Origin: Candidatus Omnitrophota bacterium
GTDB taxonomy: Bacteria; Omnitrophota; Gorgyraeia; 2-01-FULL-45-10
Length of the DNA: 64,000 nucleotides
Reading direction: 5' to 3'
NCBI GenBank assembly: GCA_028715345.1
Contig: JAQUSB010000007.1
Span: 2,287-66,286 of the forward strand
Under the pieces are notes generated by a model. That model was not told the DNA's origin. It ran no database searches and saw only the letters and a program-made list of their open reading frames with translations. Of the stretch, positions 1-53,300 are shown piece after piece (positions within the stretch are counted from its first letter, which is position 1; every line of letters starts with the position of its first letter). The translations under genes were made by a program, and so were the position numbers.

Positions 1-3000
1 ACGGAGCGCCTTCTTTCGTTAGGAGGTACCATACTGTCGTATTCACCAAGCGTCATACATATCGGGGGGATACCCTTCCTTGAAATATCGGTTTCTACCG
101 CAGGCAGACTGAGCACTTCATTTACTGGCCTCACTAGAGTTATAAGCACATCCATATTTTCCAGTTCTTTGCTTCCTGGTTTTATCCTGGCGTTTCTTCC
201 GGTTATAGGGATAAACTCAAATGTAAGGCCAGAGTACATACCTTCGAGCTCCGCTTTCTTTGAAGCTGATTCGGCCTCAAGGTTTGCCATCTTTGCCATA
301 TCTTCCTGAAAACAAAAGACTCTTATAGTATATTTCTCCACGCCCATATTAGACATTTCTTTGGCAATGCCGGGCACCAAAAGACCTATTTTTGTTATAT
401 CACCAAGCCCGGCTAGCGCTCTGGTTGCTATCCCTATCACGGGTGCATGATCAAGAGGAGGCACTTCCTTAAAATCAGTAACATCAACTATGCCAAAATT
501 TACACTCCATTTTCCCAGTCGTACTAGCACCGGCTTTATCCTCTCTGGAAAATCGGCTGACAAATTATATTCTGCTAAAATTCCAAGCACAACTGCCTCA
601 TATTGATTTAACGTAACTTCCTCGAACTTTGCCAGATCCCGCATATCGACAAAAAACCGTGTGCGTAGCATCTCTTTAAGTTCGTTCTCTAGGCCCCCCG
701 GGACTTTTCTTATACCAATTATCCTAATGAAATCCTGAACAAGCAGATCTAATACATTTTCGATATTTAAGTTTTTATTAACACCAAATGGCGGTCTGCC
801 AACCAACGGATCCATTTCTTTACTAATTATTTTTTGAAACTGTTCCTTCAGGTTCATGTCCAGGAGTATTTTATAAATCCTATTAATTTTATCGTCAAAA
901 TATATGCCCTCGTGGATAGCGTTGTAAATAGACCGCTCATCTATTTTTCTTGCTAGCCCAAGCTCTTTAGACTTATCTGTAATAAGCTTATTATGGATAA
1001 GTACGATCGCGTTCGTGATAGAGTGTGTTAAAATTATCGCGCAAATATATGCAATAGGATTTGCAGTAACTATCGGCATTATGAACGGGAGGATGATGCC
1101 GTTTATTGCAGTAACTATGGTGGGGGCTGCCAGCTTACGCGCATATGAAGGAGGCGCTCTCCCCTGCTCAAGGTGGTCGGTTATAAACTTATATCCGAAA
1201 GCCGCCTGTAAAGGCGTCGACAGGGCAAGTGCAAGATTCCAATCGAATTCACCAAATACAAAATATGTAATAACTCCTGTGATGAAAACAGGAATGAGAC
1301 GATACAACGATTCCTCTAATAACGGCGCGGCAAAAAGAGCTTTCATCCGCTTCTGCATCCGAGGAGTAATACGATCGAACCACGCGGTAACCGCCGAACC
1401 AGTTATTGGGGACGGTCCCTGTGGTGCCACCCCAGCAGCAGGCGTTGATGGCTGCTCCGGTTTCACCGCGGCGGGGGCAACAGTAGGCGACGACATTACT
1501 GGTCCAAGATCAGGGAGAATAAAAGATGGGTTATTAGTAACAAATACTGACGGGTCATCGCTAACCTCAAATAAATTTTGTACAGTCAGGACATCTTGTA
1601 TATTTTTATCAATAGCCCTTGAAATAGCGCCGGATCTCGCAGTAGCATTTTCATCAGAGGCAGCATAGATAAGAGGTAATTTTATACTAGCGCCTAATAA
1701 TTTTCTCAACTCATTTCGTAATTGTATCGCAAAATCATTACTGAAACATGATAGTAAGATTATATTCATATCCGAAAAGACCTTATTTGTTTTTGCGTTC
1801 TTTGCCAATGCCTCAGCCATCTCGATATAACTTATAGCGTTTGTGATATGCATTTCCTTTCTTTGCGCTTGGCTCGGCTCTCCCTGCGAAAGCCATAAGT
1901 GATTTTTCCCACCATGGCCATTAAATATAAAAGTGGTTACACCGACCGCATCCTCTAAATGTTTTAATATGTCATTTTTACTCTGCGGGCCAATGAGATC
2001 TTTGGTTATTATCTCATCTTTTACGCCAGTCCGCTTGGCCATCCCAAGCCAAATAGCTTCTTCGTCCGCAAACATATCCTCGGCATGCCTGGCTATTATC
2101 ATTTTTTCAGTTCTGCCCCCCAAGATCCCCCTGTTGCGATTTTCCTGAAATTGTTTCTCAACATATTCAACAGCGTTATTAATCTCGTCATCCGTTAAAA
2201 GCATATATGATTCTGTCATATGCCTTAAGACATTTTGCGCGATGATAAACGAAGCGGCTGGTTTGTTATTAGCGACCGAACTAACGCATCGCTGAAATCG
2301 GTTATTTTGCATAATCACGGAAATGCTTATAAAATCGATTGAGGGAACTTCATAATCGGCGGCTATGGTTGATCCCTCTGTGGCACGTGTTATCATGGCT
2401 TTTAGAAAAGTCTCTTTCAGAGAGGCATCTTTGACTCCAGTTAACAACCTACCAAAAATAGTCGCAAGTTTTTCTTTGATAGCTTCAGAATATGGTATTT
2501 TGGTATATGGATCCACGCCTCTGCCATATAATTGCTTAGGGACAAGTTCCATAAATTTTCTTATAACCCATGCTATAAGAACAATATTATTTGTTTGTAG
2601 CGCAGCACTTCCATATGCGGTAAACATGGTCTTGTAAACTCTTTTAAGATACGGCGTTACTTCACCATGTGGTGCTGCATAGGGCCCTCCAAAAAAATAG
2701 TGTTCCAGTATTTCTGAGTTTCTAAGATCTTTTACGAGTTCTCGAAACTCCTTAAGAGAAAGTGATTTTTCTCCAAGAAGAATAGCTTTCGCTTTTGCAT
2801 ATTCTTCCTGCGTTAGCGCAAAGACTTCGTTGACGGATATTGCGGAGCCTTGTATTATTGGGGACGATCCCTGTGGTGCCACCCCAGCAGCAGGCGTTGA
2901 TGGCTGCTCCGGTTTCACCGCGGCGGACGGCGGTGTAATAGCAGGTGGTGCTAACGAAGTATACCAAGCGAGAAGCGGCGATATTATCAAAGCCCCGAAG

Positions 3001-6000
3001 AAATAATACAATCCCATGCCCATATAGTTATGGTAGATACTTAATGTGACTATAGCAAATAACATAACGTATTTTAGGTTAGAGTAACTCTGCTTTAGTG
3101 TTAGTTCTTTTGTTAATCCGCCCTGGGGAACCCATACTAACATTTTTTTGTTTTGCCGTATTTCGTTCTTGATATCATCGATATATGATTTAATGACAAA
3201 AATGCTTACTTCTACGACATTTACAGGAGCCAACATTATGAACATAGTTAAACTTTTTATCGATTTATACGTATCTCCCACGCTCCCGTTCCCGATAAGA
3301 GCAGAACCATAAAGTTCAAACGAGATAAGTATTCCATAAAGTACTGTCAATAAACTAAGCGAGCCATAGAATATATAATGGCTAAAAACCATGTTGGTCA
3401 AAATCAAAGCTAAAAGCATCGGTGAGGAGAGATAATTTTTTGTCGCAATATATAGCAAATATTTATTAATAAGAGTTGCTTTATTTTTAACTAATTTTCC
3501 TGATTCGTCCGGCACTTCTCTCTTAAAAAAAACAAAACTTAATTTATTCCCCTTCCACCACCTCGCCCATTGTTTAATCTGCAAAAATATATTGGGCGGT
3601 ATTTCTTCAAGAGTCACAATATCTTCTGTTAAAGCCGTTTTTAAGAATATTCCTTCTACAATATCATGACTGAGATAACCGTCTTTCATTTTTCCGGCTA
3701 TTGCATTCAGAAAAGTATCGATATTCCACGCTGCGCCATGGCCTATGAAATTAACTTGTCTAAGCGCTCTCCAAACTCTTGCGCCCCTATCTCTATACTT
3801 TTTGAATATATGATAACTATATTTAGTCAGCACAGACTCTTCGGTATTATAAGGCTCAACCCTGCTCTGAAATATCCCATATTCTCGATTTGAAGGATGC
3901 TCGATCTTTGAGACCAAGCCTTTTATCGAATCTTTAGTCCAGATAGTATCCGAATCTGCCATAGCAAGATTATTTGCACCTTTTAATCCAGAGATATCCC
4001 CAAGTATTTCATCAAAAACCTTTCCCGCGGGGCATGCGGGAAACCTAGGGTCACTATCTAGCGTGCCGTCGGCCCTTAAAGAATTTTTAAGCCACAACAT
4101 GAAATGCATATATCCGCCCCGTTTCTTTTCCCAATTATTTATTGAGGAATCCCGGTGAATATAAAAAACCCTGTCTTGTCCGTATTTTTTCTGTAATTCC
4201 AAGACCCTATCTCTTTCCAACTCTCGAATGCCATCTGGAGAACTGCTAAAAACTACCCATTTAATATTAGGGTCATTGTTGTTTTCAATGGAAGGGATAA
4301 AGTCTTCATCGAAAAATTTTAACTCACTTTCACTCCTCAATAGGATTGGATAGTAAGATATTGTTTTATATTCCGGCGGAATCCCGCTCTTCAGATCTAC
4401 TCCCGGCAATATTAAAGGGTGGGTAAAGCTTAATGCTTTTGTAGCTATGCCTTCAACGATATTGTAATTAAGTATAGCCATGAAAAACACGTTCAATGCC
4501 GCTATAAAAATATTTGATTTTGACCAATCTATAAATGTAGCAAACGCGGCTGACATCAAAAGCGTCGCCACAATGGTTGAGTATATATATAGGTAGGGCG
4601 AATATTTTTTAAGGAATGGCTCGCTCGACGGAGCCGATATTGTTAATCCGCCGACTTGTATTATTGGGGACGGTCCCTGTGGTGCCACCCCAGCAGCAGG
4701 CGTTGATGGCTGCTCCGGCTTCGCAGCTGCAGCTATAAAAGCTGCAGCTACTGCGGTTGATAAAGGCCTGCTCCCATTGAGATCAAGTGTAGTGGCCGAG
4801 AGCTTAAGAATTTTATCAATTTCTTTCTGCTCCTCGGGAGACAAATTATTTTTACCAGGCGCTTCAGGCTCTTTAATACTATTACTGGAGATATTTATAA
4901 ATAAAGTTATCGGCTCAGCTGAAGGATTCAGCCTATCATAAAGTGTAATCGCCATAAGCTCTTTTTTATATCTAAACACATTAACATAGCTTATATCGTT
5001 AAATTCGGCGTCCTTAACATTAAGTATTTTGCAAACCTTCGATCTATTTTTTACCAGAATGTCAAAAGTTTTATACACATCGTTAGCATATTTGATAGAC
5101 GCTTCATTCTCGGGCTCTAATTTCGATACGGCTTTCCATGTTGCCCAGTACGCCCAAAACTCATCTTTAAGCTCAGAAATACCGGGTCGAACGAGCTTAT
5201 TATTCAAATGCGTCCATTCATGCGCCATGGTTTCCACAAGCCATATCATTGCACGGCGTTCCCCGTATTTTTCACGTAAATCCATAAACCTATCGTAATT
5301 TATGATAATTAGGTCGAGCTCGGAATCCGCCGACCCATCAAAAGAACGCAGCTCCATCTTCTCGGTATTAGTTATTAATAATACCGGGTAGCGTTCTATG
5401 CCTGCATCTAGTATTGAGAATCCTTCTAACCTGTCATACGCTTCTTCGATTAATGCTACATTACTATTTGATCTATCAATAGATGCTTCTATGTCTTTTT
5501 TATACATGCTTGCCACTAATTCACCCGGCTTCCTCAAGCTCATCCTAAGAACCTTAAGTATTCTCTTTACAGTCTCTTCATCTTTATGTATTATAAGGTC
5601 GCTTGAGATTGCTTCTGTTGCAGCGGGTGACTGCTTTTTTTGGGTTTTCCTACCTGTAATGTACGCTATTGTACCGCCCGCAATAACACTTCCTATTGCA
5701 ATTGCCGCGCTCTTAATAAACTGTCTTCTCTGATTGTGTATTATTGGGGACGGTCCCTGTGGTGCCACCCCAGCAGCAGGCGTTGATGACTGCTCCGGCT
5801 TCGCCGCGGCGGGTACAGCGGCAAGTGGTATTTTACCGGCTACTTTAGTCAATGTACTGATCTTGGCTAATATGCTTTCTGCTTTTTCGCGGCTTTTATC
5901 GGGTATTTCATAGTCAGTGGCTATCTTCCGGCATAATTCAACGGACAATTCATTGCCTATCGTATCGTTAGCGCACATTTCCATTATAAGATCCAATGCC

Positions 6001-9000
6001 TTGATAAAATTTTCCTCACTCAAACCATAGGCGGCATCTTTTTTAGTTTCCAAATACCTAAATTTAATTCTATTAATTGTTTCGACATAGTTAATATATT
6101 TATTCGGCAGGCATGCCAAGAGGCCTGCCCTATTGGCATCCTTCATCATACCATTCAGTATCTTAGATGAAATCGAGTCGGGAGGGAATAATGCGTCCAA
6201 TTTTTTATCATCGAGAATTACTTGCGCGCTTTTGGTCATCTCATAGTAATCCCCCGTATCGTATCCACTACTAGTTTTAATCAATCTCTCTTCGATAGGA
6301 ATATCAAAAACAACTTCGACGCGATCCGTGTCACCTCTACTTGCGACATAAGGCTCTCTGGAGCAATCTGACAGTGTAGATTTACCTACTCTTTGGTACA
6401 AGCCTTCGCGTAATATTTTTTCAAAGGCAGATAATGAAGTTGCATGAGCAACATGATTTAATATCTTTGGAGAAGGCGCTTCTCCTTGCCCCTTTGGCTT
6501 CGCCGCGGCGGACGGCGTCTCACCCATAAAATCGTTGGGGAAACTGCCTATAGGAAGTGCGAAGAGCTCCGCCTCCGAATTCGTTGCCGAAGGCCCTGAT
6601 TGTAAAAGTTTTCCTTCAAGAAAAGCACTAAAAGCATCTTCATCCATTTCCCTAAGTGTATTTATAGCAAATTGGAATTCGGGTAGCATCCGAAGACTGG
6701 GATCAAACTCAACGAAATTACCGTCTCCTGTAACCAGTAAGCGATAGATCGGTTCGGGGTGCGGCCAAATTCCTAAAGCATACGCTACAACCGAAAGCGT
6801 GTTTAATAATGCCGCAATATCACTAGCCCGTGCCTCGGCACTGCCTTTGCCGATACTATCGTAATCGAAAATAAAAAGCGGATTTAGATTTTGATGATTT
6901 ACTATTGTTCCATATTGATGGCTGGCGGAAAAACTTTCTTTCCAAAGTATGCGCAGTAAGGCCAGGTTACGCACAATCATCTCATTAAATAGTTTTCTGC
7001 GATCTGCGGGGTTTTCGCGTTTAAGGGTAGGATCAAGATATTCAAAAAAACTGTCCCAACGGCTATCTGCTGTGCGCCAGCTATGGTGGGACCGGATATC
7101 TCCCACTAGCGATAGTTCTTCTATTCTTTCCGATATCCCTACCTGATAAAAAAGGACCTCCTGTCCCTCAATAATCTCCCTGTCATCGGTTTTCGAGAAA
7201 CCTACGTGCTCGAGCGCAGTTTCTGCTTCAACCAATCTGGTGACATCAGTCACCGGGATACCCTTCTTTGCGCCTTCCCATATTTCCCCGGCGTGGCGAG
7301 GATCAAAAGTAGCGGATAAAAACAAAGGTTTGAATATCGCGCCGGGTTGAATAATCATGTCTTCTGCCTCGTGTTTCAAACCTCTGGCCTTTAATTTATC
7401 GAATATAGCGTCGTTTGTATCAAAATATTCATTAAATTTATTTTTTAGCCACCAGCTTGCGCCCAGATAAGTCATGTTTTCCAACGTTAGCACTCCTCCG
7501 CGCAAGCCATACGGTGGTTTACCCTTATAGAAAGGTATACGTACCCCGTCTACTGTTCTATATTCCATTCGGTCAGCTATACCTACGCCCTTAAAAACAT
7601 CCGAGCACGGCTTACCGTTTTTAGTGAACTTGGTATGCACGGCTCGATTGTGCATCAGGTTAGCGCTTGGGTTTGCGCGCATTGGTATAAGATAAATATT
7701 TGGATTCGCGCTATCTATATTAAAAAGCCTGAGCACTTCCCTGGCAGTTTCCGATAAAGACGATACAGGTAGAATAAATCTTTTTCCAACGGCCTCGTCT
7801 ATCAGATCCCTGCTATTAATGTTCTTCAAACTTGCCGGCACGAAACTGAGATCTTCGTCAGGAAACGCCTTTTTTAAGCCTCCGCTATCGTCATGAATCT
7901 CGTCCAGCGCGCGTAATATTTCCTTGACCTCTTTGCCTTCTCCAAGTTTATGCCAAACTTCGTATATATCAACTATGGCACGCTCACTGATATCAGGTCT
8001 TAAAGCACGTATAGCGCCTATAAATTCCGCTGTTGGGCCTTCGGCGGATGGTGCTGTTAAATATACGACGCCCCCGGTAATCTCTTTTATCACATCCGCC
8101 ACTTCTTCAGAGTGTGACTTTTTGCCCGTGATTTGTGAAATTCTATAGATAAATTGCCTTAAATCTTCAGGTCTGCCCGTTTGCTGGCTCAAGGCATACC
8201 CCATTCCGACTAATGCCACACCTAAACCGTATGTATATTCAGGTTCTACCGAATTATAACTGCCCCATCTTCCTTTCGCCCATTCTTCTATTCGTTCATA
8301 TTTAATTTCCAGCCCTACATCATTGTCTTTCATTACATTGTATCCATATTCGAAAGCTTCTTTTCTCCATTCCCCCATAGAGCCGGCCGCAATATCTACG
8401 TTGTGCTCTTTCTCTAAAACGCGCATCACTCCCATGGCGGAAGCAATCGGATAATCGATGTCATGCTTTATATGCCCCATTCTTTTCATTAAATGAGTAA
8501 ATTCATGGGCAACTGCCAATCTGAATCTCCTGTCACTTCCCAGAGTAGAAAGAAATATATTGGGTGTCCGCTCAAATAATAAAGAGAAATATTTTGCTAT
8601 TATCGGAAATCTACTCCCGTATCCTAAATATGAACTACCGCCCATCCTTGTTGTTTCCATGGAATCAAATAGACCATAGAGCGTGGCTGCTCCGATTAAT
8701 GGTATATAGAAAGAAAATATAATATTTTCAACAACACCGGTTGCTGATGGGTTTATGTACAATGTAATAGCCAAATACGCAATAGTAAGAAAAGGTGCTA
8801 TGAATATGGAAATCATGGCATCTTCCCGCAAAACGTGTTTTATATGATAAAACAAGTTTAACGGTTTCACTTTTTTTACAAGTTCCAGCGCGATTGCCTG
8901 TTTTTGTTCCGCTTCTTCATCGGGTAAGAAAATATTCACTACCTCAACGGCTTCTTCCGATACAATTTTTTCCTGTTCATTCGTAATCTTACCGCTTACC

Positions 9001-10937
9001 ATATTTTTTAAATATTCCCAGCGGCTAACCGTTCCCTCCTCATGCGTAACTATCGGAAGTCCTGTCCCATCCTCGGCAAGTTCCGGCTTTTGCGCCAGAT
9101 CGGATATTTCATCAGAGCCGGAAGAGGACCCTCTGTCGGGTTTGGCGGGCGGCGCTTTGAGCCCGGCGCCGATCATTGCCTCGGTCATGGTGGGGCATAA
9201 CTGGGCGGCTGTCGCCATGGAACTCTTCAAAACCGACGGCATAGCATCTCTTATCCAAATATTTTTCTCTCCCGATAGTATCTTGAAATACGGGCACTCG
9301 TAGCCGTCGCAAGTCCTGAAATTCGGTATTATAGAAATATAGGCGATATTCTTCTCTTTGAATTGTTCGGTCAAATTTTCGGTGTGGAAACCGCCGGTAA
9401 CTACGATGGAGGATTTCTGAACCTGTTTCATAGAATTAGATTGCTTGCGTGAAACAGGTTCAAGCGTCATATTCTTTATAAACGCATTGTCGCGTTTGAA
9501 TGAATACTCATAAAATTTCTCGATCCGGCCGCGATATCCGTCTAATCGGTATAAGTCCTGAACCTGTTTCATGCCGGCGATCGACTCACTTGAAACAGGT
9601 TCAAGCAACGAGGCTTCCTTATTTATAAAAGAGGTGTAATTCCGTATAGCAAAGGCGCCTTCATTAGCCTTGTAATACCTGTAATCGGCTCTCGTAAGCG
9701 AGATATTGAATATATTTTTCAGGATGGCGAGATCTTTGGAAAGTTTATCAAGCTGTCTTTGCTTATCGTTTTGATACAGGACCTCGCGGATCTTCGTTTC
9801 CAGCGCCCCGACCTCATCGATCACTTTCGACTTATCGACGGCTGCGTAGGACGAGATGTAGACGATATATTTTTCCAGCTCGGGGAAATTCCCGACCGGG
9901 ATATCCGCCTGCTTTGCCTTATTCACCAGATATCCGTAAAATTCTTCCTGCGGGGTAATCCCGGCCTTAAACTCCACCGTCTTCACCACCAGCTCCTTCA
10001 TACCGTTCTTAGATAACCTCTTCTGCAATCTGTCTATAAGCTCATCCCGCTCGTTATTGGCTTTGCGAAAGTCTATCTCGTCCTCCCGTTTCATTACCTG
10101 GTTCAGCAGGAATATGTCGGGGAAAGATTTTATATCTATCAATTTATCTCTTGAGTTCGCTGCAAGATAATTCAGGTAATCTTTGAATTCGATATTGCCG
10201 GCCTTGTATTGAGTGTATTTCAGGTCGAGCGAGAGAAGCTCCTTGGAATATATCTTCATTTTGAGATTGGTAAGGATATGACTCAGGTTTTTCAGCAGCC
10301 TGTCGACATCATCTTTATCTTTTAAAGAATTGCGGTAAACTTTAAGGTTATCGATATATAGCCTTGTATCCTCTATGCCCCACAGCCTCGCTTTATCGGG
10401 ATTGTTCAGTGCAAAATATTCGGCGCCGTTTACCAGGCCTTCTTTGACAAAATGATCCGCGACACGCTCGCGTTTAGCCCTGTCCTTTATGCCCGTAAAT
10501 ATCGAAAGGTCATAATCTTTGGCGCCGCCTTCAAGGTTTATCTCGCTAACGCCGTATTCTTTATTGAGATATTCGATTATGTCTGCTATGGCGCGCTGGG
10601 CATAGTAGTTACAGTGGGCATCCTGGATGTGGATAACGGTGGTTCCGGTCTTCCTGCTTCCGATAGCCGGCTCCCAGGAGTCTTTTACAGTCCCGAGAGA
10701 TCGCGGTAAACTGAACGTCTTTACGGTCAGCTGTTTTAAAGCGCCCGTACTGGCAGGACTGGCAGCTCTTTTATCAGAACCGACGCTAGTAAGTTCTGAG
10801 GGCGTTCTGCCAGCCCAGGCAATATCGTAACATATAGTATTAGCTAAAAAGGCCACCAAGGTGATGAAAGATATCATCGCCTTGAATGGCCTCTTAGAAA
10901 TTAAACCGACACTCCTATCAGATCTAGCGTCTAACAT
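1..10937 (-). CDS. giant modular membrane-anchored multidomain protein; 3' end beyond window (>=3,645 aa in window)
   Basis: ATG at 10937..10935 is the first start after an in-frame TAA; a possible AAGGA RBS lies 11 nt upstream. I translated every codon from 10937 to 8461 by hand in one frame (forward triplets beginning at positions divisible by 3) with no stop. Spot translations at 6481-6540, 5761-5820, 4681-4740, 2581-3140, 1441-1500 and 1-60 sit in the same frame and read as sensible protein. The rest was read less rigorously, but the length of my running translation matches 10937/3 = 3645 codons. The N-terminus reads MLDARSDRSVGLISKRPFKAMISFITLVAFLANTICYDIAWAGR (signal anchor). It is absent from the ORF track because the stop codon lies outside the window. 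Lower GC than the rest of the window. Confidence 0.8.
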   Translation of the reverse strand, partial: MLDARSDRSVGLISKRPFKAMISFITLVAFLANTICYDIAWAGRTPSELTSVGSDKRAASPASTGALKQLTVKTFSLPRSLGTVKDSWEPAIGSRKTGTTVIHIQDAHCNYYAQRAIADIIEYLNKEYGVSEINLEGGAKDYDLSIFTGIKDRAKRERVADHFVKEGLVNGAEYFALNNPDKARLWGIEDTRLYIDNLKVYRNSLKDKDDVDRLLKNLSHILTNLKMKIYSKELLSLDLKYTQYKAGNIEFKDYLNYLAANSRDKLIDIKSFPDIFLLNQVMKREDEIDFRKANNERDELIDRLQKRLSKNGMKELVVKTVEFKAGITPQEEFYGYLVNKAKQADIPVGNFPELEKYIVYISSYAAVDKSKVIDEVGALETKIREVLYQNDKQRQLDKLSKDLAILKNIFNISLTRADYRYYKANEGAFAIRNYTSFINKEASLLEPVSSESIAGMKQVQDLYRLDGYRGRIEKFYEYSFKRDNAFIKNMTLEPVSRKQSNSMKQVQKSSIVVTGGFHTENLTEQFKEKNIAYISIIPNFRTCDGYECPYFKILSGEKNIWIRDAMPSVLKSSMATAAQLCPTMTEAMIGAGLKAPPAKPDRGSSSGSDEISDLAQKPELAEDGTGLPIVTHEEGTVSRWEYLKNMVSGKITNEQEKIVSEEAVEVVNIFLPDEEAEQKQAIALELVKKVKPLNLFYHIKHVLREDAMISIFIAPFLTIAYLAITLYINPSATGVVENIIFSFYIPLIGAATLYGLFDSMETTRMGGSSYLGYGSRFPIIAKYFSLLFERTPNIFLSTLGSDRRFRLAVAHEFTHLMKRMGHIKHDIDYPIASAMGVMRVLEKEHNVDIAAGSMGEWRKEAFEYGYNVMKDNDVGLEIKYERIEEWAKGRWGSYNSVEPEYTYGLGVALVGMGYALSQQTGRPEDLRQFIYRISQITGKKSHSEEVADVIKEITGGVVYLTAPSAEGPTAEFIGAIRALRPDISERAIVDIYEVWHKLGEGKEVKEILRALDEIHDDSGGLKKAFPDEDLSFVPASLKNINSRDLIDEAVGKRFILPVSSLSETAREVLRLFNIDSANPNIYLIPMRANPSANLMHNRAVHTKFTKNGKPCSDVFKGVGIADRMEYRTVDGVRIPFYKGKPPYGLRGGVLTLENMTYLGASWWLKNKFNEYFDTNDAIFDKLKARGLKHEAEDMIIQPGAIFKPLFLSATFDPRHAGEIWEGAKKGIPVTDVTRLVEAETALEHVGFSKTDDREIIEGQEVLFYQVGISERIEELSLVGDIRSHHSWRTADSRWDSFFEYLDPTLKRENPADRRKLFNEMIVRNLALLRILWKESFSASHQYGTIVNHQNLNPLFIFDYDSIGKGSAEARASDIAALLNTLSVVAYALGIWPHPEPIYRLLVTGDGNFVEFDPSLRMLPEFQFAINTLREMDEDAFSAFLEGKLLQSGPSATNSEAELFALPIGSFPNDFMGETPSAAAKPKGQGEAPSPKILNHVAHATSLSAFEKILREGLYQRVGKSTLSDCSREPYVASRGDTDRVEVVFDIPIEERLIKTSSGYDTGDYYEMTKSAQVILDDKKLDALFPPDSISSKILNGMMKDANRAGLLACLPNKYINYVETINRIKFRYLETKKDAAYGLSEENFIKALDLIMEMCANDTIGNELSVELCRKIATDYEIPDKSREKAESILAKISTLTKVAGKIPLAAVPAAAKPEQSSTPAAGVAPQGPSPIIHNQRRQFIKSAAIAIGSVIAGGTIAYITGRKTQKKQSPAATEAISSDLIIHKDEETVKRILKVLRMSLRKPGELVASMYKKDIEASIDRSNSNVALIEEAYDRLEGFSILDAGIERYPVLLITNTEKMELRSFDGSADSELDLIIINYDRFMDLREKYGERRAMIWLVETMAHEWTHLNNKLVRPGISELKDEFWAYWATWKAVSKLEPENEASIKYANDVYKTFDILVKNRSKVCKILNVKDAEFNDISYVNVFRYKKELMAITLYDRLNPSAEPITLFINISSNSIKEPEAPGKNNLSPEEQKEIDKILKLSATTLDLNGSRPLSTAVAAAFIAAAAKPEQPSTPAAGVAPQGPSPIIQVGGLTISAPSSEPFLKKYSPYLYIYSTIVATLLMSAAFATFIDWSKSNIFIAALNVFFMAILNYNIVEGIATKALSFTHPLILPGVDLKSGIPPEYKTISYYPILLRSESELKFFDEDFIPSIENNNDPNIKWVVFSSSPDGIRELERDRVLELQKKYGQDRVFYIHRDSSINNWEKKRGGYMHFMLWLKNSLRADGTLDSDPRFPACPAGKVFDEILGDISGLKGANNLAMADSDTIWTKDSIKGLVSKIEHPSNREYGIFQSRVEPYNTEESVLTKYSYHIFKKYRDRGARVWRALRQVNFIGHGAAWNIDTFLNAIAGKMKDGYLSHDIVEGIFLKTALTEDIVTLEEIPPNIFLQIKQWARWWKGNKLSFVFFKREVPDESGKLVKNKATLINKYLLYIATKNYLSSPMLLALILTNMVFSHYIFYGSLSLLTVLYGILISFELYGSALIGNGSVGDTYKSIKSLTMFIMLAPVNVVEVSIFVIKSYIDDIKNEIRQNKKMLVWVPQGGLTKELTLKQSYSNLKYVMLFAIVTLSIYHNYMGMGLYYFFGALIISPLLAWYTSLAPPAITPPSAAVKPEQPSTPAAGVAPQGSSPIIQGSAISVNEVFALTQEEYAKAKAILLGEKSLSLKEFRELVKDLRNSEILEHYFFGGPYAAPHGEVTPYLKRVYKTMFTAYGSAALQTNNIVLIAWVIRKFMELVPKQLYGRGVDPYTKIPYSEAIKEKLATIFGRLLTGVKDASLKETFLKAMITRATEGSTIAADYEVPSIDFISISVIMQNNRFQRCVSSVANNKPAASFIIAQNVLRHMTESYMLLTDDEINNAVEYVEKQFQENRNRGILGGRTEKMIIARHAEDMFADEEAIWLGMAKRTGVKDEIITKDLIGPQSKNDILKHLEDAVGVTTFIFNGHGGKNHLWLSQGEPSQAQRKEMHITNAISYIEMAEALAKNAKTNKVFSDMNIILLSCFSNDFAIQLRNELRKLLGASIKLPLIYAASDENATARSGAISRAIDKNIQDVLTVQNLFEVSDDPSVFVTNNPSFILPDLGPVMSSPTVAPAAVKPEQPSTPAAGVAPQGPSPITGSAVTAWFDRITPRMQKRMKALFAAPLLEESLYRLIPVFITGVITYFVFGEFDWNLALALSTPLQAAFGYKFITDHLEQGRAPPSYARKLAAPTIVTAINGIILPFIMPIVTANPIAYICAIILTHSITNAIVLIHNKLITDKSKELGLARKIDERSIYNAIHEGIYFDDKINRIYKILLDMNLKEQFQKIISKEMDPLVGRPPFGVNKNLNIENVLDLLVQDFIRIIGIRKVPGGLENELKEMLRTRFFVDMRDLAKFEEVTLNQYEAVVLGILAEYNLSADFPERIKPVLVRLGKWSVNFGIVDVTDFKEVPPLDHAPVIGIATRALAGLGDITKIGLLVPGIAKEMSNMGVEKYTIRVFCFQEDMAKMANLEAESASKKAELEGMYSGLTFEFIPITGRNARIKPGSKELENMDVLITLVRPVNEVLSLPAVETDISRKGIPPICMTLGEYDSMVPPNERRRS
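1402..1474. repeat. linker direct repeat copy (encodes VAPAAVKPEQPSTPAAGVAPQGPSPI)
   Basis: Near-identical to the other copies. Followed in the protein by TM helices (LIPVFITGVITYFVFGEF; IVTAINGIILPFIMPIVTANPIAYICAIIL). Confidence 0.85.
1620..1985 (-). other. caspase-like (C14/CHAT or clostripain-like) cysteine peptidase fold candidate
   Basis: VGVTTFIFNGHGGKNH (His at 1914..1916) is followed ~57 residues later by NIILLSCFSNDF (Cys at 1746..1748), the caspase His/Cys dyad pattern. Both were translated by hand. Confidence 0.45.
2854..2926. repeat. linker direct repeat copy (encodes PPSAAVKPEQPSTPAAGVAPQGSSPIIQ)
   Basis: The 73-bp copy has one substitution (GACGATCC vs GACGGTCC). Fully hand-translated in frame. 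Confidence 0.9.
2960..3470 (-). other. polytopic TM region after the GT2 domain (at least 5 predicted helices)
   Basis: Hydrophobic stretches such as LLYIATKNYLSSPMLLALILTNMVF, IFYGSLSLLTVLYGILISF and YVMLFAIVTLSIYHNYMGMGLYYFFGALIISPLLAW, translated in frame. Confidence 0.5.
3550..4280 (-). other. processive family-2 glycosyltransferase catalytic domain (cellulose-synthase-like) within the giant ORF
   Basis: Motifs in the order expected for this family: VFYIHRD ... KKRGGYMHFM ... LAMADSDT (DxD, 3948..3956) ... GHGAAWNIDTF ... LSHDIVEG ... QIKQWARWW (QxxRW, Q at 3570..3572). The two key motifs were translated by hand. Flanked by TM helices on both sides. Confidence 0.6.
4670..4718. repeat. 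linker direct repeat copy (encodes AAFIAAAAKPEQPSTPAAGVAPQGPSPIIQ)
   Basis: Near-identical 49+ bp core. Followed in the protein by TM helices (YLYIYSTIVATLLMSAAFATFIDW; NIFIAALNVFFMAILNY). Confidence 0.85.
5208..5222 (-). other. HExxH motif 2 (VETMAHEWTHLNNK)
   Basis: The reverse complement of 5205-5235 translates in frame to VETMAHEWTHL. Confidence 0.45.
5750..5812. repeat. linker direct repeat copy (encodes AAVPAAAKPEQSSTPAAGVAPQGPSPII)
   Basis: ATTATTGGGGACGGTCCCTGTGGTGCCACCCCAGCAGCAGGCGTTGATG(A/G)CTGCTCCGG core, at least 97% identical to the copies at 4670, 2854 and 1402. Confidence 0.85.
6489..6520. repeat. degenerate copy of the linker repeat (encodes ETPSAAAKPKGQGEAPSPKI)
   Basis: Shares GGCTTCGCCGCGGCGG with the other copies. 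In-frame translation confirmed. Confidence 0.5.
8493..8507 (-). other. HExxH motif 1 (LAVAHEFTHLMKRMGH), putative zincin-like metallopeptidase site
   Basis: Hand-translated in frame: RLAVAHEFTHLMKRMGHIKH. The family is not identified; a DUF4157-like pre-toxin peptidase is one possibility. Confidence 0.45.
9418..9462. repeat. intragenic palindromic unit 1 (13-bp perfect stem TGAACCTGTTTCA / TGAAACAGGTTCA, 19-nt loop)
   Basis: Seen directly in the sequence. It encodes LEPVS-(x6)-MKQVQ in the giant ORF. Confidence 0.7.
9559..9603. repeat. intragenic palindromic unit 2 (same 13-bp arms, unrelated 19-nt loop)
   Basis: Same arms as unit 1, 141 bp away; the loop sequence is entirely different. Again encodes LEPVS...MKQVQ. 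Confidence 0.7.
10812..10877 (-). other. N-terminal signal-anchor/TM helix of the giant protein (AMISFITLVAFLANTICYDIAWA)
   Basis: Hydrophobic stretch at residues ~21-42, directly after a basic N-terminus. Confidence 0.6.
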
Positions 10938-21102: not shown

Positions 21103-21178
21103 TGGTGGAGCAGACCGGGTTCGAACCGGCGACCCCCACGTTGCGAACGTGGTGCTCTCCCAACTGAGCTACTGCCCC
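21103..21178 (-). tRNA. tRNA-Ala (anticodon CGC)
   Basis: Hand-folded. Acceptor stem GGGGCAG/CTGCTCC with the G3:U70 alanine identity pair; GCTC/GAGC D-stem; anticodon loop TTCGCAA (anticodon CGC); T-loop TTCGAAC; encoded 3' CCA. 76 nt. Confidence 0.85.
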
Positions 21179-47380: not shown

Positions 47381-50300
47381 TTATGCCGCCGTCCAGAATT
47401 CGCGCATTATGAGCTTCAGGCGCTCTATTGCGCTCGCGGTCAATTCCGAAAGCAGTCTTATGGCGCTCTTCGAGCAGAACTCTATCCTGTCAATGGTGTC
47501 CTGCGCCGTCTCATTCTCTTTCTCGGGCAATCTTTGTAATAGAACGTTGGCATCGCCTTTGTAGCAGCCCTTGAGAATATTCCTGAAAAACATGCCGATC
47601 CACGGATTTTTTTCATCCGATTCGTACAAACGCGCGCAGATAGCCCGCATGAACAGGCTGGACTGATAAAACGTCTTTTCCGCAGATCTCATATTATTAT
47701 AGCCCTCGGGAAGTTCAAAACCGAGATCCCGGACTTCTTTAAAAAGGGCCGGTTCTTCTTTCACCAGGGATCTCACTATATCCTTCGAGCGCTCTCCCGT
47801 AATGACAATTATTCTTTTTACATGGTCTTCGGGTTTGGCGGAACGGAGAAATTTTCTAAGCCCCTCTTTATCCTGGAACGCCTTACAACCCACGATATCG
47901 TCTCTGCCGATCTTTTTCCTTATATCCCTTAATGCGTCGGCCATCGTTTCCGTAGTGCCTACCTCATCCTGGAGCACCAGCGCCTCCACCCTGTCCTGAT
48001 GGAAAATATTGATCGTCTGCCAGATGTTGAATACATCCTTACGGCTTAAGGTCATACTTCCGGGGCCAAGATGCCTGCCTATCCGCGCTTTCACGATCTC
48101 TTCAGCGCCTTCCTTTATTTCGGTAATGAGCGGATGGCTTTCCAGCGCCTTCATGGCAGCGTCTCTTCTCTGCCAGAATTCATCCGAGCCGATACCGGTA
48201 GAGGTTGTGCCTGCCGATGCCAGAACAAGTTCAGGCTCGTTCTGCTCAACCGCCGGCGGTTGCACTTTATCATCACCTGGCGTAGCCGGCTCAATGCCGT
48301 TCTGCGCTTCAAGGTTTTGAGACGATCCTTCATCTGTAGACGCCAGGTCTTCCACCGCCCCTGTTCCGACGAGATCAGCCGGCGGCATGTATCTGTCATC
48401 GTAGCCTGCGCCGAATATGTCATCGAGCCTCGTCCAGTCCAGCATCGGTTCCTCTGCCTCTTCCTGCGCTCTTTGATATAAACTTCTGACTATAAAGATC
48501 ATGAAATCTACCCGCGGAGCCGCATCTTCTTCCGTAAGATATACTGACCGGGCATAACACGTTATAAGCGCCTGCCTCGCTTCTATTTTTTCGGAATCGG
48601 ATGTCTGAGGGTTTGTAAGCACTTGCATTTTTTCCAAGAAGAGAGACCTATTGCTTTGTATATCATATACCATGAATATGCCAAAAAGACGCAGGGCAAC
48701 GTCTCTTACCGTAACATTGGATGACGGTAACGCATAAAATAGCCCCACCGTGTTTTCTTTAAGCCATCCCATAAAATCACTTAAAGTCATGTCAGCAGGA
48801 ATTTCTACATTATCTCGCATCGAAGCAACAAACTCTTCTTCCGGGCTAAGGATAATGTTCACAGGCTGTATATCGGCTTCACGCTGTCCGCCTAATACCC
48901 CAGCCGGGAATATTATTTCACCGTCATCCGTTACTGTCACTTTAAACGCATCGCCTGTCACATAATGCGGAGTGGTATTTTCCCCGATAGTTACATAATA
49001 TTCGCCTTCTGTCGGCGTCGGACGGACCGTTATACTTTCTACCGGCACCCCTTTATCTTTGGCAACGGCTTTTTTGATATTGTCAAAAGGTGCGCCAGCC
49101 TCCGCCTTTTTCGCGTCCCGGGCTGTAACAGCCATAGCCGCGATCGCCGCGCCTATTCCTGCGCCGTCTTTGGCCTCGAAGACTTCGAGCTTCTGGACAT
49201 AAATACCTCCGAATATATCGGCCAGAGCTTCTTTCATCATTCTGATATATCCAGGATAATTTAAAAGCGGCCCGTCCACCGCATATGCGTATTCGCCGGT
49301 CGGTTGATAAGTTCCTTCTCTCTGCATAACGATACCTGCGAATGTAGCGGCACCCAGCCGAGCGGATCTTGACATGATATTATGCGCAATGGTCCTGACT
49401 TCCTTAACATCGTCATCGGTCGGGTCCTGTATCCCCATATCCGTAAAGTATTTCTTCAAACCATCCATATTTCCGGCCAGCCATAACGCCTCGATCTCGC
49501 TCATATTCCTGGCAGTGAAACCTTTATAACTATCCTTCTCATAATCGTGATCAGTGAAGGTAGCGGGCAGAGCGCCGTTATGATTAGCAAACAAATTATT
49601 TGCGCGAACCTCTTTTTCGAGCATGAGCCCGAACAGAGGCCCTACATATTTGCCGGAAAGCCTCTTTTCTAAAGGATGGACACCCGGATTCGAGGAAAGC
49701 CTGTCCACTTCGGCATCCAACCTCATCGCCTCAAGCTTAGCGCTACCTACTTCCAGAAGATTAAACGCTCCGGATTCCAGATTGACCGAATTTCCGTTCT
49801 CGTCAAGCATATCCGTATTATGGCCTGTGGCGAATACGCCTCCGGCGATCGTTCTGGGATTCAAAAACATGCCGTAGAGCTTCACTGTTTTTGTATCATT
49901 ACAGATTTTGACGATCTTAATGTTGATCTTATCGGTCTGCAGGCCTGCTTTCGCCAGAGCTTCATTCATAAGCGCCGCGACATCCTGCCCCATTATCCCG
50001 TCGAAATTGTAGCCTTTGACATTACACTCCGGCGTAATGGCATTTTCGCTTGTTCCTACTTTTTTCGTAGCGAAAGAAAATGTGAAGCCGGTGCTTAAAT
50101 CCCCCGACAGATTATATTTATCTGCGAAAAATCTTATCTTTTCCGCGATAAAGTCAAAGAGCTGTTTCCCCGCGCTTGCGCGTATTTCCTCCGGCACAGC
50201 GAAAGTAAGCTCGTGCTTTTTTTCGAGCGTATGGTTACCTTTAAATTCGACAAGACCTACGCGGAAATTTGTCCCTCCCAGGTCTAAAAATAGGGTCTCG

Positions 50301-53300
50301 CCCTTCTCGTCGCCCGTTAGCCTTTCTGTCTCCGTAACTATATTGGAGAGCGACGACTGATTTGTGCCGCGGAGCATAACGTCTCCCCTGAAATTCATCG
50401 CGATCTGTTTCAATGTAGTTACAGCTATCGCGAAAATGTTCGGCTTTACTCCGCCGAAGTTCGCGCGGTTCTCCGTAACTAACGCGATAAGCTCTTCCGC
50501 GCTTTTTTCCGCCGATTTTCTATCCCCGTTTATGAAGATTATCTCAAGAAATCGATCTACTATCGCGTTGAAAGCTTCAGCCTTTACTTGTTCCGACGCA
50601 TCAAGCCTTACATACATGCTTAATGCTTCTACCAAAACTGCATCCGCATTAGCCTCCTCGCCTATAGGTTTATTCGTGGCTATGCAAACGGCTTGCCTGA
50701 TCTTTCTCTCCGCGCCCTCGCGCATTTCGGCAGTTTCTAATTCGGTTATCTCGCGATTAAGCCTTGCTATATCGGCCCCCAGCTTCTCTTTTTCGGCTTC
50801 CGAGATAGAGGGCTCATCTTTACGGCCTGTCTGTTTTCTTATAAGTTCGGCCCTTTGAGCTCTTAGCTGGCTTATCCTGGCGCCGAGCGTTTTGGCGGGT
50901 TCGGCAGGCGCGCGGACAGCGGCATCGTTCGCCGGGGCTTTATCCGATAACGCAGCATTAAATGCGGTGAGTTGTCCGGTCAATCCGTCATCGGTTAATG
51001 CTTTTCTCACGGCCGCTATATTCGCTTCCTCACCCGGCAATTCCGCTACTTTAATATCTTTCGCGGCGGCAACCGGGTCGATTTTTGCAAGCTCGATAAT
51101 ATCGACTATCGCCTTCCCTCCGCCCATAGGAGGCCGTTGAGTGCCGGTAAATTCGTCTTTAGACTTATTTATTAATTCCCACGCTCTGGATATTCCATCC
51201 GCATATAAGCCCACTTCACCTATCTGTAAAAAGAGGCATCTGGCGATCTTATCGGCCAACTTCTCATCCGTGTCGATACCGCCCTTTAGCCTCGCGGCAA
51301 ACGCTTCGCGCACTGCCTGATTCTGATGCAGACTGTCGATAACAGCTTTCTCTCTGTCACTGAGCAATGCATAATAGGAAGCGGGATGGAAATCGACGGT
51401 TTTATTTGCCCCTTTATTATCAACGACTACTCTGTAATCGGGATTGCCGTCCAAAGCTGCCAATACTTGCTCAGGTCTCCATATAGCGGGGTCGATGTAA
51501 ACAGCGTCGGCGCCATAACTGCGGGAATGATCACGTAGTTTCCCGAGCAGCCTCTTCCATATCTCGGGATGATCCCATTGCAATTTAAGCAGCATATTCA
51601 TGGTATGCCTGCCGGGAGCACCGTTAAGCTCGGCCAGATTAAATATATTATTAATACCCAGCGCGGCAAGATCGCGCTTTACCCATTGCTCGTGGATAGG
51701 TAACACGATCGGCCGTGAAAATGCACTACTCTGAGGTATCTGAAAAGTACCTGCACGCAGGGTCAATTCCGGCCCTATATCTACGGAAGAATAGTAAAAT
51801 GCGGTATGCACAACTCCTAACGGACCGCTCCGGTTGACGGCAACGTCATATCGACCCAAAGGAATTTCCCGGATCGCGATAGTAACGTTGTGACTGAAAC
51901 CACGCAAGGCATACCAGCGCGAAGTCTTGCTGAATTTGTCATCCGATACCGAAACAAGCCGCGCAAGTCTTATGAACGAACTGACATCCGGCCCATCCCA
52001 CTCGCCTTTTTCCTCAAGCGCTTGTAGTCTCGCCTTCCATTCGCCCGAGGCGGCGCTCATAGCTTCTTCTCTCATTGCAGGCGTCGAACCTATCCCGCTT
52101 CTTTCGAATATGTCGCGGATCAGATCCCTCACCCTGAACTTTTTTAACTCAGGATATGTAAAGTACCGGAGTGTTGTTTCGCTAAATAAAGCGTCGGGCC
52201 GATTCATCACTAATACCGAAGAACTGCTACTTAATTCCCATATCTTGGATCTCGCATAATCTTGGAATTCGACGTTGATACCTAAGCCGGCAAACCATCT
52301 GCGCAATGATCCAAGATCAAGCTTAACCTCTACTTGATCCGCGGCATGCTGCGCGTAAGCGGCAAGTTCTTCTGCTAACGCCTGCCTTTCGGACGCGATA
52401 CGCTCGGCCGCGTATACTAATCCGGGCAGCCAATCCATGTTTTCCGCGCCAATACGCACTAACCCGCAATCAACGCTATAATAAATACGCTTCCTGACCT
52501 CTTCCGATACTACGCTCCCGGCGTTCACCCTTAAAACTTTTATACCCTTGTCGCTGACGTTGGTGCAGATCTCAAATATCTGCTCACCATTTCTCATATA
52601 TGTCAGGACATCGCCCTCTTTGATAGCATTTGCATCCAAGGGGTATGTTCTGGAGATCGAAAATAAATCGACCAGTAATTTCGTTAATGACGCGAAATCA
52701 TCCCGTACATCTTTAATGCGGGGCCGCAATTTTTCGGGCGTTTCTTTTGCGGTAATATCCGGTAAGAGCGGTAATCCCTCTAGTTCCCTCCCGACCGTAA
52801 GCATAATCTGCGCCGCCGCGGGATTGTTTATTTCGGTCTCCGTAAGAGATTTTCTTTGCCGCCTCGTTCCTTCCGCCAGGGTTTTAATTTTAGCGTGAAA
52901 TTCTTTTCTTGCCGATACTAATTCAGCGGCGCTTCTAGCGATCTCAGATAACCTATTTACATTTTCGCCGCTTATATTTACAAGCTGCCAGTTGTCAAAA
53001 TCATGCCGCTCCGCGTCCATCGAAATAATGTCTTCCGCGGTAATTTGTAATATCTTCAGCCGCCCATCCTGATCGGCCGCAAGGCAAATGCAAAACTCCC
53101 GCTTTTCGACCCTGCCGTTGGTTAAAATATCTCCTGCCCTGATAATAGAGTTCTCCGGGATCGGCTGAGATCGCCCTGAATAGAAAAGTACCCGATATAA
53201 ATATCTGACAAGCGGATCCCGCCTTTCCAACATTTCGGCAACCCAGCTCTTTAATTCATCGGGATCCACACCGCTATATTCTTCATATGAATTCGGCAAA

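Follow-up and report, generated by a model that had tools for sequence, protein, structure and literature searches.

What a bacterium might do with a single polypeptide of several thousand residues, and in which compartment, is the question raised by the left end of a 64,000-nucleotide (nt) stretch of DNA from a Candidatus Omnitrophota bacterium (GenBank assembly GCA_028715345.1, contig JAQUSB010000007.1, positions 2,287 to 66,286; the whole stretch is referred to here as the window). A giant open reading frame (ORF) occupies positions 1..10937 of its minus strand, and all features of this ORF described below lie on that strand. Translation of the reverse complement and a recount gave 3,645 open codons and zero stops from the ATG at 10937 to base 1, as an earlier reading of the bare DNA (the original prediction) had claimed. 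At the ORF's guanine-plus-cytosine (GC) content of 0.424 the random-codon stop rate is ~5.9%, and the calculated probability of 3,645 open codons is ~1e-96. The ATG (10937..10935) is the first start codon downstream of an in-frame stop 13 codons earlier, and it is supported as the start because many homologues align from residue 1. No stop of the giant ORF lies inside the window, and the frame is missing from the ORF track for the reason that had been proposed, since ORFs leaving the source edge are skipped.

A search of 5.8 billion proteins returned a 100% identical NCBI entry (P0001), named 'MAG: hypothetical protein PHI58_02250, partial [Candidatus Omnitrophica bacterium]' (MAG, metagenome-assembled genome) and encoded on a 67,235-nt contig. 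Since this entry is 4,407 amino acids (aa) long and still flagged partial, the window holds residues 1-3645 of a longer protein, of at least 4,407 aa, whose gene leaves the window at its left edge. An exact 43-mer from that edge was absent from the metagenome contig collection. The identical protein and the named homologues, which are Omnitrophota, agree with the Omnitrophota-type origin that had been proposed, and we conclude that 1..10937 is a true protein-coding gene from a member of the Omnitrophota.

The product of this gene belongs to a family of long membrane proteins that is very large, multi-copy and confined to the phylum. A word-indexed protein search gave 319 matches including P0001, and the other 318 are long Omnitrophota proteins. 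The 119 homologues listed are 2,060-6,126 aa long and align with only ~16% of the query in each case; local BLASTP placed the region that they have in common at aa ~40-590 and at the N-terminus in 119 of 119. Downstream of this constant head the cargo differs among homologues, with Pfam domains such as HATPase_c, protein kinases, ABC1/UbiB with M48, HEAT, PEP-utilisers, GNAT, metallophosphatases and others. When a profile built from 26 aligned heads (A1) was scored against 1.84 billion cluster representatives, it matched 9,051 proteins at E<=1e-3, of which 5,750 reach E<=1e-30, and in all 150 listed matches, from proteins of 630-7,683 aa, the domain begins between about residues 7 and 133. Species-representative genomes contained 399 head-domain loci; the named organisms are all Omnitrophota, including Candidatus Omnitrophus magneticus, and some third-party MAGs among these loci bear the label 'Planctomycetia'. 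Several genomes hold two to three copies, among them a complete 1.43-Mb chromosome (CP070780.1). The head domain therefore matters as a handle by which thousands of otherwise unalignable long proteins, and the N-termini of fragmented ones, can be recognised, counted and classified.

We next describe this head. It is preceded by an N-terminal signal anchor, as originally predicted (aa ~18-40, 10818..10886), which follows five Arg/Lys residues and reaches a Kyte-Doolittle peak of 1.78 at aa 18-36. The family-defining domain itself spans aa ~60-590 (9168..10760). Across the 26 aligned head domains the motifs HIQDAHCN (10631..10608), NLEGG (10538..10524), NGAE, LWGxE, RD and TGGFHTxNL (TGGFHTENL in the window copy, 9398..9372) are invariant. 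An AlphaFold2 model of the head, with a mean predicted local distance difference test (pLDDT) of 81.3, has a beta/alpha core formed by residues ~80-190 and ~500-540, which is split by an all-helical insert of ~300 residues. In the model the core is a parallel beta-sheet with flanking helices, as in the Tiki/TraB/EreA/ChaN superfamily. Structural likenesses of the model (values in brackets) are to a TraB family protein (8.3), ChaN (8.1), HopBA1 (8.0), BcR136 (7.4), EreC (7.4) and the Ras-cleaving endopeptidase RRSP (7.3), and these alignments extend over 137-168 residues each, which roughly matches the head core in size.

The structure paper on RRSP describes the superfamily site as a 2His/2Glu arrangement, known from RRSP and Ere, in which one strand carries Glu-x-His, the following strand Glu and a later strand His, and a His-Glu pair activates water (PMC6254334). 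The invariant residues D106-x-H108, E136 and H518 of the head lie at the C-terminal ends of model strands 40-47, 73-76 and 449-456, in the same order as in the 2His/2Glu site. The head differs from the Tiki/TraB/PrgY/erythromycin esterase/ChaN/RRSP superfamily in its ~300-aa helical insert within the core and in its first acidic residue, which is Asp where Tiki-superfamily sites begin with Glu. From the model we consider it quite likely that the head is Tiki/TraB/EreA-like by fold, and a hydrolase activity may be inferred for it.

Sequence profiles from Pfam, NCBIfam and the PDB gave no match to the head domain, and a core-only head profile found nothing in the PDB and Pfam. Specifically, PF01963, PF05139 and PF04187 gave no family match, and only one of the 26 members touches Cofac_haem_bdg (the ChaN model), at E=0.2. 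A Foldseek search of the model against the PDB, into which the helical insert drew coiled-coil noise, returned nothing significant, with Ere-family entries at ranks 11, 19 and 48 (E 0.6-1.6). As judged by these profiles, the head lies outside every sequence-detectable existing family. The available portions of three papers on Omnitrophota giant proteins contained no mention of the head domain that we could find, and a full-text literature search pairing Omnitrophota with erythromycin esterase, TraB or Tiki gave none among the matches listed. The new part of this work is thus the annotation of a family-defining, previously unannotated domain with invariant candidate catalytic residues, which also offers one tractable unit of ~530 aa for expression and assay.

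Behind the head stands a string of cassettes, and the most clearly recognisable is a polytopic glycosyltransferase module, M6 (aa 2095-2672, 2922..4655), in which two transmembrane (TM) segments, a GT-A catalytic domain and about four further TM segments follow one another. In a phmmer search it matched the cyclic beta-1,2-glucan synthase in the PDB (8rf9/8rf0) at E=1.5e-9, aligning to residues 444-831 of 8rf9 with the catalytic motifs in register: DSDT (from 3956) with DADT, QSRVEP with QPRVTP, LSHDIVEG with LSHDLLEG, and QWARW (from 3572) with RQHRW. The NCBIfam model MdoH matched at E=6.9e-8, with 31.1 bits against a cut-off of 419, and Pfam Glyco_trans_2_3 at 22.1 bits, under its 27-bit cut-off. 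Cgs/NdvB (GT84, PDB 8rf9) and OpgH/MdoH (GT2) have the motifs DxD, QxRVxP, SHDxxEG and Q/RxxRW, as well as a TM-flanked catalytic domain, in common with M6. However, Cgs carries phosphorylase and cyclase domains, both of which M6 lacks, and M6, unlike Cgs and OpgH, is a cassette within a larger protein. The processive GT2 enzyme originally proposed can therefore be narrowed to a putative polytopic glucan synthase whose closest relatives by sequence are of the Cgs/OpgH type. The complete 2,452-aa family member P0002 carries the same cassette at 71% identity (aa 634-1241), starting and ending at the same residues and flanked by a different Pro/Ala-rich linker.

Several other cassettes resemble proteases. 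M7 (core aa 2870-3135, 1533..2330) has the His-Cys pair noted originally as caspase-like, with His3008 at 1916..1914 and Cys3064 at 1748..1746. Its AlphaFold2 model (pLDDT 81.1, predicted template modelling score 0.82) shows the caspase-haemoglobinase fold, with the His and the Cys following model strands E132-137 and E189-193, and H3008-G-G and C3064 are invariant in six sequences, which include five homologous modules. Structure prediction thus confirmed a clan CD fold, nearest to legumain and GPI8/PIGK of family C13, at a sequence identity of ~12-14%; unlike C13 peptidases, M7 carries a helical N-terminal extension of ~190 aa. Profile searches added little, as the window copy had no Pfam match, one of the five homologues matched Peptidase_C13 below threshold (E=0.007), and PDB profiles gave no meaningful match to M7. 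M8a (aa 3185-3325, 963..1385) is a CPBP/Rce1-like (Abi) intramembrane protease candidate with the motifs EExxxR (LLEESLYR), FxxxH (FITDH) and HxxxN (HSITN). In seven M8a-homologous segments E24, E25, R29, F67, H71 and N125 are invariant and the His of HxxxN is kept in six; PF02517 (Rce1-like) matched four of the seven, with a best E of 2e-4, and left the window copy unmatched.

Two further modules contain HExxH. M2 (7938..8675), a putative zincin-like metallopeptidase, bears HEFTH at 8507..8493 and follows a TM hairpin that the hydropathy scan predicts at aa 702-753 (8679..8834). It matches Peptidase_M78 faintly (E=0.06), and no third zinc ligand was identified in it; its HExxH is kept in three repeats of another member, P0082, and the module recurs in P0126. 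The core of M5 (4848..5540), putatively metallopeptidase-like, bears HEWTH at 5222..5208, followed 16 residues downstream by a conserved Glu. This motif and the Glu are invariant in four homologous modules (from P0009, P0043 and P0061), and Pfam and PDB profiles gave no match to M5. A metallopeptidase function of M2 and M5 is plausible from these conserved residues. The original claim of two HExxH peptidase folds is thus not established: both motifs are conserved in homologous modules, but no peptidase hidden Markov model (HMM) or PDB profile matched them. The motif positions that it gave were correct throughout, including GHGG from 1919 and LSCF from 1754; it had overlooked the ~530-aa head domain, the CPBP/Rce1-like module and four nucleotide linkers.

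The cassettes occupy different positions in different members: M5 recurs in P0009, P0043 and P0061, and M7 in P0012, P0034, P0075 and P0081. The CPBP cassette was found in six proteins and is doubled in P0075 (aa 1942-2854) and P0097 (aa 1413-1966), and the HExxH unit occurs three times in P0082 (aa 1058-1867). Since P0082, P0075 and P0097 repeat cassettes, duplication within genes appears to take place besides exchange between genes. These alignments show discrete cassettes that have been shuffled between paralogues.

In the giant ORF, four direct-repeat copies of 87 nt (family D1), which encode a Pro/Ala-rich linker peptide of sequence AAKPEQPSTPAAGVAPQGPSPII, lie at 5724..5810 (copy 1, ..AAKPEQSSTPAAGVAPQGPSPII..), 4644..4730 (copy 2), 2838..2924 (copy 3) and 1386..1472 (copy 4), so that M5, M6 and M7 are each bounded by one linker type. 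Their 53-nt core shows at most one mismatch, which is beyond chance expectation, and has 72% GC against 42% for the gene. The 19-codon core contains no synonymous difference and two non-synonymous ones, both Pro to Ser. Because the copies differ at no synonymous site, recent copying or gene conversion is indicated rather than long-term selection on the peptide, and the pattern, in an AT-rich gene, suggests recent gene conversion or cassette insertion. Repeated linkers of any kind were found in only 9 of 161 long family members, and a linker 30-mer was absent from the genome and metagenome contig collections; given this rarity, the four-linker set is a peculiarity of the giant ORF. A repeated linker acting as a family-wide processing signal was considered and ruled out as a general feature on the same count. 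The four linkers nevertheless provide a small test case for processing or recombination at junctions. TM helices, which the original prediction placed after every linker, follow three of the four, and the caspase-like module after linker 3 begins without one.

Directly after linker 1, hydropathy marks a TM segment (5664..5720) with a twin-arginine-like n-region (NQRRQFIKSAAIAIGSVIAGG), to which the Pfam twin-arginine translocation (TAT) signal model matches faintly (E=0.83). This twin-arginine-like signal is internal (~5664-5735, aa 1735-1758). NCBI calls another family member, P0020, a 'twin-arginine translocation signal domain-containing protein'.

How might such a polypeptide work? We consider it somewhat probable that it is a tethered array of envelope-remodelling enzymes in the cell's own cytoplasmic membrane. 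The N-terminal signal anchor and the ~530-aa domain would form the head, followed by a variable string of enzyme cassettes, which here would comprise two HExxH modules, a Cgs/OpgH-type glucan synthase, a legumain-like peptidase, a CPBP protease and other modules. A hydropathy scan found ~13 hydrophobic TM segments in the part of the protein covered by the window, and these would thread the polypeptide into the cytoplasmic membrane. Because five Arg/Lys residues precede the first TM segment, the positive-inside rule predicts an N-in orientation with an extracytoplasmic head; if the head is outside, the five predicted TM segments between the two would place the glycosyltransferase catalytic domain in the cytoplasm. 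Nucleotide sugars are found in the cytoplasm, and a synthase that depends on them needs its catalytic domain there. A location in the cell's own membrane is favoured since neither a polytopic synthase nor a CPBP protease could travel as soluble cargo. So arranged, the array would build a glucan and proteolytically process envelope or surface substrates.

A number of points weigh against this proposal. The topology comes from a crude hydropathy scan, and the likeness of D106, H108, E136 and H518 to the 2His/2Glu site depends on their order and strand position. No module of the window's own sequence reaches a curated HMM threshold: the whole protein had no match in Pfam, and module-wise searches of Pfam gave sub-threshold matches only, so that the HMM searches suggested with the original prediction lend sub-threshold support to the glycosyltransferase (MdoH, Glyco_trans_2_3) and yield no peptidase HMM above threshold for the window modules. 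M3, M4, the N-terminal part of M7, and M8b onward, which together make up about 40% of the chain, are without assignment. Finally, the neighbouring genes in the window, which encode ETF alpha/beta, acyl-CoA dehydrogenase, FabF, FabG, MiaB and RsmE, offer no functional clue. Those beside P0002 encode FtsH, FolP, DacA, PdxJ and AcpS, and by comparison of the two gene sets the family has no conserved operon context.

The same modules could be read in another manner, as a self-processing polyprotein or effector array in which the head or the clan CD or CPBP proteases would cut at the linkers and the cassettes would then act apart, possibly on a host or prey. MARTX toxins, which carry a clan CD processing protease (CPD), would be the model. 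They likewise pair that protease with a Tiki-fold effector, RRSP (PMC6254334 for RRSP), and several protease-like modules of the giant protein keep their catalytic residues intact. Moreover, a constant head with variable cargo recurs across more than 9,000 members, four near-identical linkers could serve as uniform cleavage sites, and a predatory or parasitic lifestyle is inferred for Omnitrophota in the literature. However, polytopic membrane enzymes such as the glucan synthase and CPBP cassettes are not deliverable as soluble effectors, secretion-system genes are absent beside the giant ORF, and repeated linkers, confined to 9 of 161 long members, are not a general processing signal. The linker also contains no Asn or Asp, which are the usual P1 residues of legumain. 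We therefore regard the polyprotein as an unlikely alternative. A related thought, to which we give a similarly low probability and which is drawn by analogy with polymorphic toxins or MARTX, is that the constant head and variable cargo constitute a cassette-shuffling system, in which the membrane-anchored Tiki-like head would be a processing hydrolase that matures or frees the cassettes and the linkers would be sites of both recombination and cleavage.

Less probable again is a structural surface coat or adhesin whose enzyme-like modules are mainly binding domains. Adhesion or coat roles have been proposed for Omnitrophota giant ORFs in the literature, but Pfam scans found neither repeat domains nor any of the adhesin, lectin, dockerin or Ig type, nothing besides the linker is repeated within the protein, and the catalytic residues of the head, glycosyltransferase, clan CD and CPBP modules are strictly conserved. 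It could also be argued that the giant ORF is an assembly or annotation artefact, and that the real genome holds several shorter genes or another cassette order. The source is a short-read MAG contig with four linker repeats of 53-87 nt, and because all copies are in one frame, a mis-join between linkers would leave the ORF open and go undetected. Nonetheless, the 10.9 kb are stop-free across non-repeat junctions as well, the head-to-M2 arrangement is seen again in P0126, and thousands of independent homologues of 2,000-7,683 aa follow the head-plus-cassettes plan, among them P0002, itself complete, and one encoded on a complete chromosome. An artefact is thus very improbable, and the tethered enzyme array is the reading that we retain.

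The original prediction held that a membrane glycosyltransferase combined with peptidases was not a recognised architecture. This view does not stand, as membrane glycosyltransferases, peptidases and many TM segments are the published pattern for Omnitrophota giants. West-Roberts et al. 2023 (bioRxiv 10.1101/2023.11.21.568195; 'Archaeovorin') report giants from this phylum with glycosyltransferases, peptidases, methylases and many TM helices, and with N-terminal regions that are generally without identifiable domains. Nielsen & Lui 2026 (bioRxiv 10.64898/2026.06.07.730766) define class 1 'multi-enzyme clusters', 94% of which have a TM segment or signal peptide, and a third study (eLife 2025, PMC12419801) describes Omnitrophota giants with polysaccharide-synthesis enzymes, peptidases and TM segments. 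As in the protein studied here, the published multi-enzyme giants combine many TM segments with glycosyltransferase, peptidase and other enzyme domains that have diverged strongly from the Pfam models, and their sequences are poorly conserved apart from domain content.

There are also differences. The surveys used thresholds of >=10,000 or >=30,000 aa; the giant ORF product is at least 4,407 aa, partial, and the listed family spans 630-7,683 aa, so that it probably falls below them. A SecA-DEAD domain and/or an N-terminal C39/S8 peptidase is common in the published set above 30 kaa and is not found here: Pfam detects no SecA-DEAD, C39, HEAT or GT5 domain in the giant ORF product, which has the putative Tiki-like head at its N-terminus instead. 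The likeness to MARTX toxins is a functional analogy only. These, too, are very long modular polypeptides with unrelated enzyme cassettes, a clan CD protease and a Tiki-fold domain, but they are marked by RTX repeats and a type I secretion context that are absent here, and the cassettes of the giant ORF include polytopic membrane enzymes. We suggest that the giant ORF product, already deposited, is a further Omnitrophota multi-enzyme membrane protein that is probably envelope-modifying; by analogy, its type of function would match that proposed for the multi-enzyme giants.

The remaining modules of the giant ORF can be listed briefly. M3 (aa 1010-1470) and M4 (aa 1485-1705), together at 5823..7910, have no Pfam, PDB or family-internal homologue, and M8b, the start of a further soluble module (3..962), has no Pfam match, and neither has the full module taken from P0001. 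An H..N...DYD pattern noticed by eye in M3 might hint at a kinase-like domain, which we do not claim. The missing homologues for M3, M4 and M8b are weak evidence, because a word-indexed search at the level of cassettes loses true matches: with aa 600-2100, a query that contains low-complexity sequence, it lost the self-match, and with the M7 alignment it gave one fragment. A promoter and terminator scan of the upstream intergenic region gave nothing on the strand of the giant ORF. The GC content is 0.42 in the giant ORF and 0.505 in the adjoining housekeeping genes, which could reflect amino-acid composition or a different evolutionary history.

Elsewhere in the window, two long minus-strand ORFs overlap by 109 nt in different frames and could be two genes or one frameshifted gene of ~3,700 aa. 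The ORF at 53671-58557 encodes 1,628 aa with an N-terminal signal or anchor, a C-terminal TM segment and no Pfam match, and that at 47381-53779 encodes 2,132 aa with Hexokinase_1 and Hexokinase_2 at aa 1116-1549 and no TM segment. The head domain does not occur again in either of them, and neither matches any of 207 family proteins. From 10938 to 64000 every plausible gene is encoded by the minus strand and the GC skew stays negative, which places the window within one replichore with full strand co-orientation. A tRNA-Ala(CGC) gene lies at 21103-21178.

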